From Candidatus Latescibacterota bacterium (GTDB lineage Bacteria > Latescibacterota > UBA2968 > UBA8231), in contig OZ242005.1 of the NCBI GenBank assembly GCA_965204725.1, forward strand, positions 2,496,001 through 2,560,000: 64,000 nt of DNA, given 5' to 3'. A model generated the notes under the pieces. It saw only the letters and a list, made by a program, of their open reading frames with translations, was not told the DNA's origin and ran no database searches. The position numbers and the translations under genes were made by a program. The first letter of the stretch is position 1; each line of letters starts with the position of its first letter. This document shows positions 18,193 through 24,149 of this stretch, piece by piece.

Positions 18193-18419
18193 GATACGTT
18201 GTTCGACCGCCGAGTACTGATCCCTTATTGAAGTTCAAACCGCTCAATCTAACATAGATGATATGGTGGTATGGGAGTGGACGGAAATCTCCCATGTACC
18301 CTATTATTGAATAGATAATCTAAAGCGAATGAATCCGTTAGTTCGTGGGTGAAATTAGCCTGAATTGGCTGCCCGTGCTCATGCCGATGTGAGTACAAGG
18401 TTACAAAGGAGGTCCCCGA

Positions 18420-19289
18420 ATGATTGCAGAGACGAGCACCGTAGTCTATCGAGCCATCAGCTTGGGTGCAGGAGCCCAGAGTTCAGTCCTAGCACTTCTC
18501 TTGTCGCGGTCTGACCCTCGCTTGGTCGAACTTGGGTACCCCAAGCCGGACGTCGCTATATTCGCCGACACCGGATGGGAGCCGGACTATGTGTACCGTC
18601 ACTTGGACTGGCTTGAGGAGCAACTTGAGTATCCATTGCTTCGAGTGTCAGATGGCGACCTGAAGACCAACTTAAAAAAAGGACGCACGGTATCGAACCA
18701 TCGCTTTATCGATGTCCCTTTGTTTATGGTCAATCAGGATGGCAAGAAGGGCATGCTGCGACGACAATGCACCAACCACTACAAGATCAGACCTATCTAT
18801 CGTCGGATCAGGGAAGAGGCAGGTGGCCGGCGTGGCCGGCCATTCCCAAAGGGTGAACACGCCGAAATGTGGCTTGGGATTTCACTAGACGAGGTAGGCC
18901 GCATGAAGCCGAGTAGGGAATCTTGGGTTGAGCATCGCTGGCCGCTTGTGGATCTCGGCATGTCGCGCCGCGATTGCGTTGCGTGGTTCTCCGCTGAGTA
19001 TCCAGGCCGCCACTTGCCTCGATCGGCCTGTGTAATATGCCCGTACCGATCCGACGAACATTGGCTCGAACTAAAGAGGTCAGAACCAGCCAGTTACGAC
19101 GAAGCCGTAGAGTTCGACCGTTGGCTACGACGAAGCAAAAAGACGCCTGTACGCAAGCTGCTGAATGGCCGCCCATACCTTCACGCCGCACGGCGGCCTC
19201 TTAGCAGTATCATAGAAGAACGGGAGACGGAAGGCGCGAACGAGATCAACAACTTCAATAACGAGTGCGAGGGCCTCTGCGGTGTCTGA
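18420..19289 (+). CDS. PP-loop/PAPS-reductase-like adenine nucleotide alpha-hydrolase with Cys motifs
   Basis: ISLGAGAQSS PP-loop variant, IFADTGWEP, RRQCT..YKI.PI, WLGIS.DE..R, SACVICPY, C-terminal ECEGLCGV; AAGGAGG RBS. Confidence 0.75.
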   Translation: MIAETSTVVYRAISLGAGAQSSVLALLLSRSDPRLVELGYPKPDVAIFADTGWEPDYVYRHLDWLEEQLEYPLLRVSDGDLKTNLKKGRTVSNHRFIDVPLFMVNQDGKKGMLRRQCTNHYKIRPIYRRIREEAGGRRGRPFPKGEHAEMWLGISLDEVGRMKPSRESWVEHRWPLVDLGMSRRDCVAWFSAEYPGRHLPRSACVICPYRSDEHWLELKRSEPASYDEAVEFDRWLRRSKKTPVRKLLNGRPYLHAARRPLSSIIEERETEGANEINNFNNECEGLCGV

Positions 19290-20529
19290 AACAGGGCTGA
19301 TAACGGTCAGTCCTAAGTTTCCGCTATATTCCTATCAGCGGCAGGTGCTGGCTGACATCGTCCGTGCCCTATCATCTCCTGAGCGTCGAGCTGTCGCTCA
19401 TCTTCCCACCGGTGCCGGAAAGACCAGAATCGCAGCCCATACAGCCTGTCACTTGCTGAACGAGAAAGATACCAATGATTCCCTTGTCATCTGGTTGGCG
19501 GCTACAGAGGAACTTTGCGAACAGGCGGCAGCCCAACTCTCAGAGGCTTGGACTCATCTGGGACGGCGAGATGCCTGCATTCATCGACACTGGGGAAATC
19601 GGTCGCTTGATCTAAGGCGTCTGCCATCTGGGTTCTTAGTGACAGGTCTTGCCAAACTGCGTTCTGCTGCATTCCAAGACAACACCCTTCTTGCCCACCT
19701 TGCACACTGTGCCGCGGCCATCATCTTTGACGAAGCTCATCAGGCCGTTGCGAAAACCTACTCCTTTATAACTGAGCAGCTATGCAGTGTAAGGCCGCCG
19801 CTTCTCGGCCTTACGGCCACGCCGGGACGCTCAGCGCATCTGACTGAGGACGACTATCGACTTGCCAGCATGTTCAATCACAACAAAGTTTCGATAGATC
19901 CACGAGGACACGACAATCCCGTCACCTATCTCATCCAAAACCGCTATTTGGCCGACCCGCGCTTTGTGCCAGTCAGCTTCGAGTCTGATGCTACCATCGC
20001 AGACCCGCAGCCCGGCATGGATTACAGTACAGATGATCTCGACCGCCTAGGCCGCAACCATGAACGCACACTCAAGATCGCCGAACTCGCAAAGGCCGCG
20101 GCGGCACGTCACCCTCGTACCATTGTGTTCTGTCCGTCGGTAGAAAGTGCCTTGGAATGCAACAAACTCCTTCGAGAAAAAGAGATCGTAACTAACGTCA
20201 TTACCGCCAATACTCCTAGTGAAGACCGTCGGGCTATCATCGACTTTTTTAGAAGCGACAGCAGGGAGCATGTCGTGTTATTCAACTATGGCGTACTCAC
20301 CGCCGGCTTCGATGCGCCCCGGACGCGATGCGTCATCATCGCTCGCCCCACCACATCACTGGTACTCTACTCGCAAATGGCGGGACGAGCAATGCGCGGT
20401 CCTAGAGCGGGTGGAAATTCAAAAGCTGAGATACTCACCGTTGCCGACACGAATCTCCCGGGATTCGGGTCTGTGACTGATGCCTTCACAAATTGGGAGG
20501 AACTATGGTCGACCAACTCGCCGAACTAA
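19282..20529 (+). CDS. SF2 DEAH-box (ResIII-like) helicase
   Basis: Q motif YQ, LPTGAGKT, DEAH, TAT, LTAGFDAP, QMAGRAMR; GTG start overlaps the upstream stop. Confidence 0.9.
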   Translation: MSETGLITVSPKFPLYSYQRQVLADIVRALSSPERRAVAHLPTGAGKTRIAAHTACHLLNEKDTNDSLVIWLAATEELCEQAAAQLSEAWTHLGRRDACIHRHWGNRSLDLRRLPSGFLVTGLAKLRSAAFQDNTLLAHLAHCAAAIIFDEAHQAVAKTYSFITEQLCSVRPPLLGLTATPGRSAHLTEDDYRLASMFNHNKVSIDPRGHDNPVTYLIQNRYLADPRFVPVSFESDATIADPQPGMDYSTDDLDRLGRNHERTLKIAELAKAAAARHPRTIVFCPSVESALECNKLLREKEIVTNVITANTPSEDRRAIIDFFRSDSREHVVLFNYGVLTAGFDAPRTRCVIIARPTTSLVLYSQMAGRAMRGPRAGGNSKAEILTVADTNLPGFGSVTDAFTNWEELWSTNSPN

Positions 20530-22358
20530 AAGATGCAGATCGCAGCCTCTTTCCGAGCGATTTAACCATACGTGCTCTACGAGATAGTCGGTATCACAAC
20601 ACCGCCTATGCCATTGCCGAACTCATCGACAACTCGGTAGAGGCGAATGCTGGACAGATTGACCTCCTCTGCATGGAAGCACCTCAGAGAGTAGGGGTAC
20701 GGACTCAGCGACGAGTTTCCGAAGTGGCAGTCCTTGACAACGGCGATGGGATGGACGTAAAGACCCTCCTTGACGCCCTCAAATTTGGCGGGGGAACCCG
20801 TCATAATTCGGATAGAGGAGTAGGGAAATACGGCATGGGCCTCCCCACCTCGTCAATGTCGCAATGCAAAAGGGTGGATGTATGGACGTGGCAGGATGGC
20901 CTAGATTCAGTATGGCACTCCAGCATCGACGCTGACGACATTGAGCAAGGGAACCACAAGGTTCCCATTCCTGATCAAGAGACACCTATACCTGAGGTCT
21001 GGAGGGAGGCCGGCAGCGACGAAATATATGAACATCGCTCGGGTACGCTTGTCGTTTGGACCAAACTGGACAAAATTCAGTGGAGAACCGGCAGCACGAT
21101 CCTCAGACACACAGCCCGAGAGGTCGGTCGGATCCATCGGCACTGGATTGATGCGGAGATGACAAAAATACGAGTCGGCTTTTTTCTTAATAACCGCCCT
21201 ACCGAAATTAAGAGCGAGGACTGTATTGTCGCAAACGATCCTCTCTACCTGATGAATCCTTCCTCTACTCCTGTGCCTTGGAGTAACGAACCGATGTTTA
21301 AAGAATGGGCCAAGAAAGAATATACGCCTACCGTGGAGGGCAAAGAGGTCACTATTGAAGTGAAGTATTCAATCGTTAAGCCTGAAGCCTTGCAGACGAA
21401 CAGAGTTACGCAGAATCCCGGTGCTGAAAAGCATGGTACTCACGCCAGACACAACATCGGCGTATCGGTTGTTCGGGAAGACAGGGAGATTGTGCTCGAA
21501 GACGCCTTTCTTAGAGAAGGTGGGAGTGCTGAGAATCCACAGAACCGCTGGTGGGGCTGTGAGGTGCATTTCCCTCGCAGTTGCGATGAGTTGTTTGGCG
21601 TAGATCACAACAAGCAGATGGCTGCAAATTTCACACATGCAGCGAAGACCCTCGCTCGTGACGACCGCCCCAATCAGGTAATACTAGACGAGATGGGAAT
21701 CGACGACGACATCATCTATACCATAGTAGGGGATATTCGAGACGAAACGCGCACCATGATGAGTCAAATAAGGCAGATGTTTGATCAGAGACGGAACCTA
21801 CAGAATGGGGGCGGCGGAAGAAGCCCCGAAAAGAAAGCCGCAAAGACCGCTACTGACGCAGACCGAGAGGCTATAGAGGCTGGTGAAGAAACACCGACTA
21901 AGACAGATAAAGACCGCGAGCAAATTCCATCCCAAGAGCGGGAGGCTCGTCTCACGCAACAGTTCATTGAATCTGGTCAAGCTGCTCAAGACGCCCAACA
22001 ACTCGCGAAGCAATTGGTACAGGAAGACCTGTCATACCAGTTCAACTCGGATCAGCTTGACGGATTCCAGATTTTTAACGTGCGCTCGAACCAAGGAGTT
22101 CTGCACATCAATCTCAACACCGATCACCCGATCTATGACCTCCTCAAGCACATTGAAAACGGCCTTCCAGAAGATATCGACGAGAGCAGCCCTGCATTCC
22201 AAGCCAGCGTTGCGATCAGATTATTGTTGTCGTCGTGGGCTCGAATGGAAGACCAGACCGAATCACGTGAAGAGCGAATACGCATTCAGGACGTTGCCAT
22301 GAATTGGGGCCGTCAGGTAGATAAGGCCATCAATCAACTGCGCGATAGAGAGGGGTAG
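20505..22358 (+). CDS. MORC-like GHKL ATPase (HATPase_c_3)
   Basis: AELIDNS, DNGDGM, GKYGMG and SGT Bergerat motifs; S5-like middle region; C-terminal INLNTDHP; GGAGG RBS. Confidence 0.85.
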   Translation: MVDQLAELKDADRSLFPSDLTIRALRDSRYHNTAYAIAELIDNSVEANAGQIDLLCMEAPQRVGVRTQRRVSEVAVLDNGDGMDVKTLLDALKFGGGTRHNSDRGVGKYGMGLPTSSMSQCKRVDVWTWQDGLDSVWHSSIDADDIEQGNHKVPIPDQETPIPEVWREAGSDEIYEHRSGTLVVWTKLDKIQWRTGSTILRHTAREVGRIHRHWIDAEMTKIRVGFFLNNRPTEIKSEDCIVANDPLYLMNPSSTPVPWSNEPMFKEWAKKEYTPTVEGKEVTIEVKYSIVKPEALQTNRVTQNPGAEKHGTHARHNIGVSVVREDREIVLEDAFLREGGSAENPQNRWWGCEVHFPRSCDELFGVDHNKQMAANFTHAAKTLARDDRPNQVILDEMGIDDDIIYTIVGDIRDETRTMMSQIRQMFDQRRNLQNGGGGRSPEKKAAKTATDADREAIEAGEETPTKTDKDREQIPSQEREARLTQQFIESGQAAQDAQQLAKQLVQEDLSYQFNSDQLDGFQIFNVRSNQGVLHINLNTDHPIYDLLKHIENGLPEDIDESSPAFQASVAIRLLLSSWARMEDQTESREERIRIQDVAMNWGRQVDKAINQLRDREG

Positions 22359-22360
22359 GA

Positions 22361-23206
22361 ATGTACGGGCGGCCCGGAGACATGTTGAGCAGTGTTTGTT
22401 CAGGTGCCCAACATCTCATCATCGCGGCACCGTACATCAAGGCTGATGCTCTTACTAAAGTTCTGGCCGACGTTAGTCCGGCAGCATCTCTTATATGTAT
22501 CACGAGGTGGAGTCCGCACGACCTCGCTGTGGGTGCTTCCGACACCGAATGCCGCACTATTGTCTCTGAGCGTGGAGGCTCATTCAGGCTCCACCCGTCA
22601 CTTCACGCCAAATACTATCGAGTGGATAACGTGGTCCTCATCGGGTCTGCTAATCTGACCTCTTCCGCATTGGGCTGGTCGCGCCAGCCTAATCTAGAAA
22701 TCCTCTGTCTTCCGGGAGACGACTTCGACGCGGACACCTTTCAGCAATTTCTGTTTGAGGGAGCAAGAGAAATCGGTGACGAGGAATTCGCACATTGGGA
22801 ATCCATAGCTAAGATCGGTGCTCAAGAGACGGGAAAGGCAACTGGCGGCCAACCCCGGCTTGACACTTGGCGACCGGCAACTCGCGACTTTAGGAACTTA
22901 GAACTCGCCTATCAGGGCAGAGAAGACGAGATCGCTTCATTCGACGAGCAGCGAGCGGCACAGCGCGACATCCGAGCTCTCCTAATCCCGCCTAGCTCAA
23001 CCGATGAACAGGTCCGAATGTGGGCATCGGCTTGTCTGCTTGCTGCCCCTTTCACCAACGCCGTGATACGGCTGCATGGTATAGAGGAACCAAATGCATC
23101 CCGCTCGCTGGCCGAGACCTATAATCTCGGAAGAGCTGAGGCTCGCAGGGATATGGAAACTGTCCAGAACTGGCTCACATTCCTCATGCCAGAACTACTG
23201 AACTGA
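22361..23206 (+). CDS. Phospholipase D-family nuclease (single HKD)
   Basis: AAPYI, LHAKYYRVD (HxKxxxxD), GSANLT, NLE. Confidence 0.85.
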   Translation: MYGRPGDMLSSVCSGAQHLIIAAPYIKADALTKVLADVSPAASLICITRWSPHDLAVGASDTECRTIVSERGGSFRLHPSLHAKYYRVDNVVLIGSANLTSSALGWSRQPNLEILCLPGDDFDADTFQQFLFEGAREIGDEEFAHWESIAKIGAQETGKATGGQPRLDTWRPATRDFRNLELAYQGREDEIASFDEQRAAQRDIRALLIPPSSTDEQVRMWASACLLAAPFTNAVIRLHGIEEPNASRSLAETYNLGRAEARRDMETVQNWLTFLMPELLN

Positions 23207-23286
23207 GAGGACGCCGATCCTTTCGCCGCGAGATCGGGCGAACCCGCGACTGCGGGATATTCCACAGAGAGGAACTGCTGACCTAA
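23204..23286 (+). repeat. Right copy of duplicated rmlC 3' end (displaced tail)
   Basis: Encodes RTPILSPRDRANPRLRDIP, then a 1-nt indel; ends in TAATG overlapping the next start. Confidence 0.9.
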
Positions 23287-24149
23287 TGACATTTGATTTG
23301 ATGAAAGCACTCTTGGATACTGAGGCCCTGCGTCTCGCCCCACCGGGCGAGGTGTTTTGGTACACCTCGGGCACGGTAGGCCCTTACTACCTCAACGCAC
23401 ACTATCTCTACGGCGGCCCGGCCGCAGCCACGGAATTGCTATCCTTCATCGATGCGGCCAAGGAGCAGGAGGACTTCCCCCAGCGCTTGCGGGAGCGCGT
23501 CTTGAAGCAGTGCGCCGAGGACGCCGTCTATCGCCAAGTCATTGACTCCTTAGTCGCTCAAGCACAGGCCAGCGGGGCGCGGTTTGACGCGGTGTCGGGT
23601 GGCGAGCGCCGCGACTGGTTTTTTTCGCTGGCCGTGGCCGAGCGGTTGGGCAAGCCCTCATTGCTGATCTACAAGGATCGGCGCACCGCGTTACTGGAGG
23701 GAGAAACGCTGCGCCCAGCAGCGGCCAACTCAGTAGAAACGCTGCACGTGGCCGATATGGTGACCGAAGCGTCGAGTTACCTCCGCGCTTGGATCCCGGC
23801 AGTCGCAGCCGGCGGCGGGCGGATCGCCTATGCGGCCAATGTGGTCGATCGCGGGCAAGGCGGCTTGGAGGTGCTCAAAGCCGAGGGCATTGCGGCCGGA
23901 GCACTTATGCGCGTGGATGAGGCGTTCTTTGGCCGCATAGGCGAGTTGGGGCAGGTAGATGAGGCACAACGGGCAAGGCTCATTGAGTACTACCGCGACC
24001 CACACGGGGCGATGCGGGCCTTCTTGGAAGCGCATCCCGAGTTTTTGCGGCGCGCACTCCACGGCCGCGATGCACAGGCGGCGCAGCGCGCCCGCTTGCT
24101 CATCGCCGAAAACCCCTACGCGCTCGACGAGGCCCTCTGGCAAGGCTGA
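23286..24149 (+). CDS. pyrE: Type I phosphoribosyltransferase, orotate PRTase-like
   Basis: FWYTSG..GPYY, VSGGERR, HVADMVTEASS PRPP-binding loop, VVDRGQGG. Confidence 0.6.
   Translation: MTFDLMKALLDTEALRLAPPGEVFWYTSGTVGPYYLNAHYLYGGPAAATELLSFIDAAKEQEDFPQRLRERVLKQCAEDAVYRQVIDSLVAQAQASGARFDAVSGGERRDWFFSLAVAERLGKPSLLIYKDRRTALLEGETLRPAAANSVETLHVADMVTEASSYLRAWIPAVAAGGGRIAYAANVVDRGQGGLEVLKAEGIAAGALMRVDEAFFGRIGELGQVDEAQRARLIEYYRDPHGAMRAFLEAHPEFLRRALHGRDAQAAQRARLLIAENPYALDEALWQG

Follow-up and report, generated by a model that had tools for sequence, protein, structure and literature searches.

The window analysed here is the whole stretch of 64,000 nucleotides of contig OZ242005.1 (positions 2,496,001 to 2,560,000 of the forward strand) from a Candidatus Latescibacterota bacterium (assembly GCA_965204725.1). 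It contains a cassette of four genes, A, B, C and D, formed by co-directional open reading frames (ORFs) on the + strand at window positions 18420-23206. An original prediction, made from the letters of the window, had described four tightly coupled genes in an AT-rich island, and both features were confirmed from the ORFs and the base composition: A and B overlap by 8 bp, B and C overlap by 25 bp when C starts at the ATG at 20505 (37 bp with the TTG at 20493), C and D are separated by 2 bp, and the GC content of the cassette is 0.537 vs 0.622 for the flanks. The identities assigned at that time (a phosphoadenosine phosphosulfate (PAPS) reductase-like protein, a superfamily 2 (SF2) helicase, a MORC ATPase and a phospholipase D (PLD) protein) were borne out by profiles, folds and motifs. 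The insert is composed of the following features, L054 being the equivalent locus of a cassette-free genome of the same genus.

18236-18419, + strand: upstream non-coding part of the insert, starting where L054 homology ends, with a sigma-70-like match and AGGAGG
18420-19289, + strand: gene A, putative Fe-S enzyme of PAPS-reductase fold, 289 aa, phrog_424; proposed writer
19282-20529, + strand: gene B, SF2 DEAH helicase core (RadD/PbeA-like), 415 aa; proposed translocase of the effector module
20493-22358, + strand: gene C, MORC-like GHKL ATPase, 621 aa (from TTG 20493) or 617 aa (from ATG 20505)
22361-23206, + strand: gene D, single-HKD phospholipase-D-fold protein, 281 aa; proposed effector nuclease or nickase
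23207-23267, + strand: downstream end of the insert; L054 homology resumes at about 23268

The product of gene A is predicted with confidence to adopt a PP-loop/PAPS-reductase fold. Its AlphaFold (AF2) model, calculated from a 50-sequence family alignment, has a predicted local distance difference test score (pLDDT) of 91.9, and the best Foldseek matches of the model were the PAPS reductase CysH (6vpu) and the [4Fe-4S] enzyme LarE (8cp4), with modest scores (E ~4e-4, TM 0.4-0.5). In profile searches A remained under the gathering score of Pfam PAPS_reduct (17.9 bits, E=3.4e-3) and matched the 'PAPS reductase' family phrog_424 at 5.5e-39, residues 12-289 aligning with profile positions 164-412 of 460, which takes in the whole catalytic domain. 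The PADLOC model for SspD (PDLC02782) gave 46.1 bits (1.3e-12) with A vs 457 bits with the true SspD of Pannonibacter, while no match at E<=0.1 was obtained with PADLOC BrxP or with any NCBIfam model, DndC (TIGR03183) included.

Two sequence features of A had been singled out in the original prediction, the loop SLGAGAQSS and a C...CxxC...CxxxC set, and both proved to be invariant or nearly so in the family alignment. The loop, whose family form is SLGAG[A/V]QSS, occupies the place of SGGKDS in SspD and DndC, and the cysteines are arranged as C117...C204xxC207...C283xxxC287, a set that ends at the C-terminus; the invariant residues are G16, G18, Q20, S21, D50, E54, R115, C117, C204, C207, C283 and C287. 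The signature of A, RxCT...SxCxxC...CxxxC at the C-terminus, has the same cysteine topology as true SspD proteins encoded beside relatives of B, C and D (RWCT...SGCxFC...CxxC at the C-terminus), yet the latter carry SGGKDS. The tail of A, ECEGLCGV, also resembles the CysH-like EC..GL tail of the assimilatory reductase encoded in the same genome (CC...CxxC...ECGLH). In A, the cysteines of the signature probably comprise a [4Fe-4S] site together with one reactive cysteine in the tail. Judged by its sequence, A is not an SspD but a distant relative with a common cysteine pattern.

Gene B encodes an SF2 helicase core, with matches to Pfam ResIII (5.8e-20) and Helicase_C (6.9e-15) and to RadD (6jde, 7.9e-20); its best PADLOC match is the helicase part of PbeA (6.7e-19). 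The C protein matches Pfam HATPase_c_3 at 2.4e-21 (76.6 bits, cut-off 25) and MORC2 at the sequence level at 1.5e-4, and is laid out as a GHKL domain with conserved N-box, G1 and G2 boxes, a transducer/S5-like domain and a helical C-terminal region. Since Foldseek aligned its AF2 model (pLDDT 80.8) with SMCHD1 (6mw7) and MORC2/3/4 over 400-475 columns with E values of 1e-11 to 1e-9, the label 'MORC-like' is a fair one; inspection by eye, without an alignment with bona fide MORCs, gave no clear match in C to the MORC S5 motif GhXhhpXXRhl (Iyer 2008). D falls below the gathering cut-off of Pfam PLDc_2 (3.6e-5, 24.1 bits, cut-off 27) and contains a single, canonical HKD motif of the form HxKx4Dx6GSxN, read from the translation as LHAKYYRVDNVVLIGSANLT. 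Across the cassette loci described below, B, C and D retain their catalytic motifs in every locus that bears the respective gene: motif I PTGAGKT of B in 30/30 and DEAH in 29/29, the N-box and G2 of C in 28/28, and the H, K and GSAN residues of D in 27/27. None of the three proteins matched the PADLOC models for SspE, SspF, SspG or SspH.

The relation of this trio to DNA phosphorothioation emerged from its orthologues in other bacteria. When C and D were used as queries against plasmids from cultured bacteria, 13 records contained a full-length C match, and seven loci were examined. By RefSeq annotation, a PAPS-reductase-family gene lies beside the helicase, GHKL and PLD genes in six of the seven, and three of those six (Trichormus variabilis ATCC 29413 plasmid A, Pannonibacter phragmitetus BB and Mesorhizobium onobrychidis) encode DUF4007 protein, large ATPase, PAPS reductase and cysteine desulfurase, a complete set; the other three are Geminocystis NIES-3709, Hymenobacter GOD-10R and Roseobacter litoralis. 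In the seventh, Agrobacterium CFBP7129, no PAPS reductase was present within the displayed region. The gene order on Trichormus plasmid A is DUF4007, a 1168-aa ATPase, PAPS reductase, two small ORFs, a DndB-like gene, helicase, GHKL, PLD and cysteine desulfurase, and that in Pannonibacter is sspA and then DUF4007, ATPase, PAPS reductase, helicase, GHKL and PLD. PADLOC identified the Pannonibacter writer proteins at full length as SspA (2.7e-115), SspB (2.9e-106), SspC (1316 bits) and SspD (457 bits), and gave for the adjoining trio only partial PbeA, MzaB and ZacB/DrmC matches, as with B, C and D of the window.

The same association was found within the phylum of the window, with C-like genes in 24 of its 168 genomes. 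Identity of C reaches 76% or more in 11 of them, and these coincide exactly with the 11 A-holding genomes. From the divergent class of C-like genes (33-44%) nine loci were fetched; SspB/SspC/SspD genes adjoin the helicase and GHKL genes in eight of them, and a PLD match was likewise obtained in eight of nine. The order helicase-GHKL-PLD is the same in six plasmid loci and eight phylum loci, and blastp comparison of the window proteins with the Ssp-linked trio gave identities of 40-43% for B, 34-39% for C and 27-40% for D, over the full length for B and C. The helicase-GHKL-PLD trio is a recurrent companion of the SspABCD writer, and in the cassette A stands where SspABCD normally stands. Because the trio adjoins canonical sspABCD, it can be regarded as an Ssp-linked effector, a restriction module whose action goes together with a mark on the DNA backbone. 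The earlier proposal that A marks DNA and that the helicase, MORC and PLD proteins restrict has thereby gained strong contextual support, and remains a prediction for the cassette itself.

Other genes also recur at these loci. DndB-like/DGQHR genes are found in Ssp-linked trio loci, and three plasmid loci have, between the PAPS reductase and the helicase or DndB-like gene, an ORF of 170-176 aa that matches nothing in Pfam (L045 10200-10712, L044 10026-10556 and L042 3601-4131); the three ORFs had no mutual blastp similarity at E<=1e-3. One cassette holder of the same genus as the window carries a second, divergent helicase-GHKL-PLD trio (L139, G134:C1:3811000-3830999), with no Ssp gene detected in the fetched region of 20 kb.

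The genome to which the window belongs (94% complete) gave no tblastn match to SspB, SspC or SspD with three to four queries for each (from Pannonibacter, Trichormus and the same genus), and SspA, SspB and SspC are missing from the cassette. A search of the genome with PF13182 was blank, as was its control. With SspB, SspC and SspD missing, A is the only candidate for an Ssp-type writer, in cis or in trans. Four cysteine-desulfurase loci are present in the genome. Besides the cassette, a locus 1.3 Mb away is sulfur-modification-like (G000:C1:3831000-3837000; L041 5168-10780, minus strand): it encodes a DndA/SspA cysteine desulfurase (5.6e-158), a 400-aa DndC above the cut-off of TIGR03183 (344.8 bits), a DUF262-type protein matching the PADLOC HEC-06/Orf5/SspE models (3.5e-69) and a ZorD/DpdE-like SNF2 helicase (3.8e-58), with no DndD or DndE among the ten ORFs scanned.

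To define the distribution of the cassette, A was used as query against one genome per species, which yielded 31 loci. A-B-C-D is complete and in the same order in 27 of these, a conserved co-occurrence that agrees with the original view of a self-contained module; of the four exceptions, L010 and L031 are cut off by contig ends and L015 and L021 are decayed. Among the 31, 22 loci have all four genes free of stops and no shorter than 90% of full length. The hosts span at least six phyla and include Latescibacterota, several classes of Chloroflexota, Binatia, Alphaproteobacteria, Spirochaetia and a metagenome-assembled genome (MAG) of the Rhodothermaceae; several are closed chromosomes, while MAG contig assignments (e.g. 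L005) could reflect binning errors. The A proteins of the cassette loci are 66-96% identical, the cassette has a lower GC content than its flanks in 26 of 27 loci, and A occurs in 11 of 168 genomes of the window's phylum and in 4 of 30 other genomes of its genus. All-against-all clustering of flanking ORFs revealed no family common to the 31 loci beyond close relatives, the neighbours being unrelated metabolic genes; families recurring among close relatives only are aldo-keto reductases, ABC transporters, FGGY kinases and a xylose-isomerase-like protein. An additional conserved partner or mobility gene was therefore rejected.

Phylogenetic and decay patterns separate A from the trio. In maximum-likelihood trees, A of locus L006 is sister to A of L009 with support of 100/99, while C of L006 forms a long branch outside the clade containing C of L009 (in a quick C tree in which long branches were flagged). 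This conflict indicates that writer and effector modules recombine, as in restriction-modification systems. A stays at full length in the decayed loci L015 and L021 and also where C is shortened or interrupted (L004, L008, L011, L020), and decay that keeps A follows restriction-modification logic. The cassette is a genuine, widespread and horizontally mobile defence-type module.

Comparison with genomes of the same genus defined the ends of the insert. In the cassette-free genome G131, homology to the window stops at about 18235 and restarts at about 23268 (L054), and the only cassette remnant at the site is a 266-bp relic (L054 9001-9266), 87% identical to window positions 20305-20569, which correspond to the final 74 codons of B together with the first part of C. 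In a second genome, G136, the equivalent of 18236-23267 is occupied instead by a toxin-antitoxin pair (L053 8325-9190) at the intergenic site between RmlC and the conserved ORF, consisting of an MNT nucleotidyltransferase (Polbeta, 4.1e-16) and a HepT-like HEPN RNase (1.5e-26). The relic and the toxin-antitoxin pair bound the insert at about 18236-23267, attest gain and loss, and mark the site as a variable hotspot for accessory modules.

Individual loci bear further traces of rearrangement. One Latescibacterota chromosome holds two A-B-C-D copies (L004 and L030), the C gene of L004 having an in-frame TAA. The A and C of L030 are nearly identical to those of L005, a 9-kb contig of the Rhodothermaceae MAG, reflecting either a very recent cross-phylum transfer or a binning error. 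In a Spirochaetia MAG the C match is shortened to 558 of 621 aa and D follows only about 2.2 kb after its end (L020 11731-13954), suggesting an insertion into the cassette.

Outside the cassette, A belongs to a very large family of 4123 clusters (50% identity) at E<=1e-3, most of them viral or plasmid-borne. The phrog_424 match and viral Atlas clusters support the earlier recognition of A as an Fe-S protein of the phage or mobile-element type. Genes 30-44% identical to A are carried by Pelagibacter phage HTVC034P, Thermus phage P23-77, Salisaeta phage SSIP-1, M. abscessus prophages and many alphaproteobacterial plasmids. B-C-D is a fixed partner only of the clade at least 66% identical to A, and neither C nor D was found near the stand-alone genes in any of 80 metagenome loci. 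Their neighbours in these loci include DNA polymerase (16), DNA methyltransferase (13) and a nucleotide-kinase-like ORF (11), the methyltransferase cluster member lying within 3 kb in its 13 loci and mostly abutting A; one plasmid gene is a fusion of a Dcm methyltransferase with an A domain, and on conjugative plasmids A-type genes adjoin ArdC-like anti-restriction genes. By guilt by association, these neighbourhoods suggest that the substrate is DNA and that the gain lies in protection from restriction. No reported function for phrog_424 or the A family was found in the literature searched. The nearest outgroup of A consists of fusions of about 545 aa with an N-terminal DUF6339 (PF19866) and an A-type domain (P0128-P0143, P0165, P0174, P0226). 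A metagenome search for their context found nothing with a single-protein query and only stand-alone A-type genes with an alignment query, and a plasmid search matched the A half only.

We therefore favour, at slightly better than even probability, the reading of the insert as a horizontally mobile, minimal phosphorothioate-type (Ssp-like) restriction-modification cassette with a single-gene writer. In the model that we propose, A would take sulfur from a housekeeping cysteine desulfurase, bind a [4Fe-4S] cluster through C117, C204, C207 and one of the two tail cysteines, the other receiving the sulfur, and place a phosphorothioate or closely related mark on the host DNA backbone. The helicase and the MORC-like clamp would load on DNA and scan it, B translocating and C clamping the DNA and cycling on ATP, and D, as an HKD dimer, would nick or cut DNA without the mark. 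The data establish the gene content and coupling of the cassette, its conservation, the folds and catalytic motifs of its proteins, the link of the trio to Ssp and the lack of SspB, SspC and SspD in the genome. DNA modification by A, the nature of the mark, the independence of A from a dedicated nickase or ATPase, and the attack of B-C-D on unmarked rather than marked DNA are inferences.

Several observations weigh against this model. The DNA-marking role of A is predicted from sequence, context and fold, and A is only 21-23% identical (blastp, E ~1e-7) to the SspD proteins of the trio-linked loci. Replacement of SGGKDS by SLGAG(A/V)QSS means that A may adenylate nothing. Known phosphorothioate writers always require an ATPase and a DNA-binding or nicking partner (PMC12707154), and A has neither in cis. 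The absence of C and D from all 80 stand-alone loci indicates that the activity of A is not tied to the trio, and the separate DndA and DndC locus means that another sulfur mark may exist in the cell. All cassette loci, decayed ones included, were recovered with A as query, so that the count is blind to cassettes without A. Lastly, the sequence is compatible both with cutting of unmarked DNA, as by DndFGH and SspFGH, and with stimulation by the mark, as in SspE.

The second of these modes underlies an alternative in which B-C-D is activated by an A-dependent mark on host DNA, or attacks marked foreign DNA, and A signals instead of protecting. The partner of Ssp that has been studied best, SspE, senses phosphorothioate (PT) and shows no activity in its absence (PMC8092258), and the presence of A-type genes on phages makes marked invader DNA a possible target. 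We nevertheless consider this alternative unlikely: decayed loci keep A and lose B, C or D, a better fit to a protective writer than to a mark-activated effector, and the helicase plus HKD nuclease architecture resembles ATP-dependent restriction enzymes and PbeA (PMC10853773). The trio might also belong to a modification-only machine, with A as SspD analogue, C as an ATPase like SspC or DndD, and D as a nickase like SspB writing the mark together with B, and with no restriction at all. Known PT writers depend on three components, namely a PAPS-reductase-like enzyme, an ATPase and a protein that nicks or binds DNA (PMC12707154), and the cassette could supply analogues of each. This arrangement appears more improbable still, as the trio occurs on top of complete SspA-B-C-D sets that already have an ATPase and a nickase, which argues that it is not an accessory of the writer, and A recombines with very divergent B-C-D lineages (L006), as separable modules would.

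The substrate of A can be questioned as well. A might not modify DNA but act on a protein, nucleotide or small molecule through adenylation, thiolation or sulfonucleotide reduction, and function next to a B-C-D nuclease machine in sensing, in regulation or as a second effector. Other defence systems, Qat and type IV CBASS, have QueC-like PP-loop enzymes that modify proteins. A lacks SGGKDS, the enzymes of nearest solved fold (CysH, LarE) act on small molecules, A has the CysH-like EC..GL C-terminal tail, and it does without B-C-D in 80/80 stand-alone loci. On the other side, A occupies the SspABCD position beside an orthologous trio, the SspD cysteine signature is common to A, and its relatives abut or are fused to DNA methyltransferases, so that we give a non-DNA role a low probability, like that of a signalling mark. 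A structure prediction for the A-B complex (score 0.00, mark 0.32) is evidence neither way. That the four genes are a chance neighbourhood or a dead, functionless relic is very improbable indeed. Decayed copies do exist (the in-frame stop in C of L004, the truncated L015 and L021, the 266-bp relic of G131); against this, gene order is kept in 27/31 loci across phyla with intact catalytic motifs, A proteins 66-96% identical and overlapping junctions.

Under the favoured restriction-modification reading, the closest known relative is the Ssp system (SspABCD with SspE or SspFGH). The two share the writer-plus-effector logic, the B, C and D orthologues that adjoin sspA-B-C-D, and, in A, a distant SspD relative with the same cysteine pattern. 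They differ in that the cassette has no SspA, SspB or SspC and its genome no SspB, SspC or SspD, in that A scores 46 vs 457 bits and lacks SGGKDS, and in that B-C-D is neither SspE (DUF262-DUF1524) nor SspFGH; SspF has a Walker A motif and SspH is FtsK-like (PMC8092258). The 'PAPS reductases' of PHROG 424 resemble A in matching the same profile, whereas on phages and plasmids they stand alone in replication or anti-restriction regions.

Among effectors, operons combining a MORC-like/GHKL ATPase, an SF2 helicase and an HKD nuclease were predicted to be ATP-dependent restriction systems by Iyer, Abhiman & Aravind in 2008 (PMC2292703). These operons are tied to DNA methylases, unlike the cassette, and that paper mentions neither PAPS reductase nor phosphorothioation. 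The claim that the cassette is a wholly new kind of system was abandoned in favour of a compact Ssp-type variant, the MORC, SF2 helicase and HKD theme having been known since that paper. A second precedent is PbeABCD: HKD plus SF2 helicase is a PT-linked effector combination, and the Dnd-linked PbeA fuses both (PMC10853773). The best PADLOC match of B is to the helicase part of PbeA; in the cassette, however, HKD protein and helicase are separate with a GHKL ATPase between them, and there is no PbeC (CxC ABC ATPase) or PbeD (DndE-like).

Identity with other named systems was rejected. The earlier statement that the cassette has no methyltransferase, cysteine desulfurase, DndD/E or SspB/C/E was supported by our searches. 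The cassette is not Dnd, as A has no DndC match, DndD and DndE are missing and the true DndC lies in another locus, nor BREX type 4, as A has no BrxP match and the flanks are RmlC, an SEC-C protein, a conserved hypothetical gene and SMC. For DISARM, Mza, PbeABCD and SspFGH, PADLOC, NCBIfam and Pfam gave domain-level or far sub-threshold matches: D shares the PLD fold of DrmC (NF038319, 20.3 bits vs a cut-off of 133) with no DrmA or DrmB match among the cassette proteins, and C shares the GHKL N-terminal domain of MzaB (NF041932, 63.7 vs 850 bits) with no MzaA, MzaC, MzaD or MzaE nearby. As the original prediction had supposed, no PADLOC model set names the cassette, and PADLOC 2.0.0 has no system model for the trio. 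Neither the four-gene combination nor the trio was described in the open literature searched, although the supplementary gene-neighbourhood datasets of PMC10853773 and PMC12839542 may list the trio. A 2025 review recognises only three PT effector branches, dndFGH/sspFGH, sspE and pbeABCD (PMC12707154); MORC, GHKL and PLD have no occurrences in the main text of the 2024 reappraisal of PT machinery (PMC10853773), and a paper on BREX type 4 in the gut (PMC12914056) contained none of the looked-for terms.

The helicase/MORC-like/PLD effector trio and a one-gene writer of phage type thus appear to be undescribed in the literature searched. About 84% of sspBCD clusters were without a known restriction partner in the 2021 SspFGH paper (PMC8092258), and the trio, which adjoins sspABCD in members of the cyanobacteria, alphaproteobacteria, Bacteroidota and Latescibacterota, may be one such missing partner, a candidate testable in cultured strains. 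The cassette further suggests that a multi-protein writer may be replaceable by one small enzyme of a very large phage and plasmid family. If true, the phrog_424 family would gain a function, phages would be expected to use backbone marks in counter-defence, and a single gene could serve as a tool for modifying the DNA backbone. A MORC-like ATPase that acts in bacteria with a mark-dependent nuclease would also offer a tractable model of MORC mechanism. A bolder proposal joins three parts: that the phrog_424 Fe-S enzyme alone writes a backbone mark (PT or a new sulfur or phosphoryl adduct) without the desulfurase, nickase and ATPase on which all known PT writers depend; that phages and conjugative plasmids use it as an orphan writer to disguise their DNA from restriction that reads marks, like orphan methyltransferases; and that the trio is a further, undescribed class of PT-reading restriction module common to Ssp systems and the cassette. 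Taken jointly, these are put forward tentatively, at a probability well short of even.

The flanks of the insert are housekeeping in character, with genes for the dTDP-sugar epimerase RmlC, an SEC-C-motif protein, a conserved hypothetical protein, SMC and GatC, and the window has no tRNA genes. An AGGAGG ribosome-binding site lies 7 nt 5' of the A start codon, and one sigma-70-like match was found upstream of A at 18278-18307; a promoter scan of the insert gave this single match vs 3.6 expected from shuffles, which is not above chance, and a terminator scan gave nothing exceeding the shuffle expectation. The ORF at 23286-24149 (+) was considered as a fifth cassette gene and rejected, as it adjoins RmlC/SMC in cassette-free genomes of the same genus too. 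It encodes a conserved protein of 287 aa with no Pfam, PHROG or other family match, and is syntenic beside SMC. Among the sequencing runs matching the DNA no RNA runs were listed; runs labelled sponge or marine metagenome contain at least half of the sampled words, a hint at habitat only.

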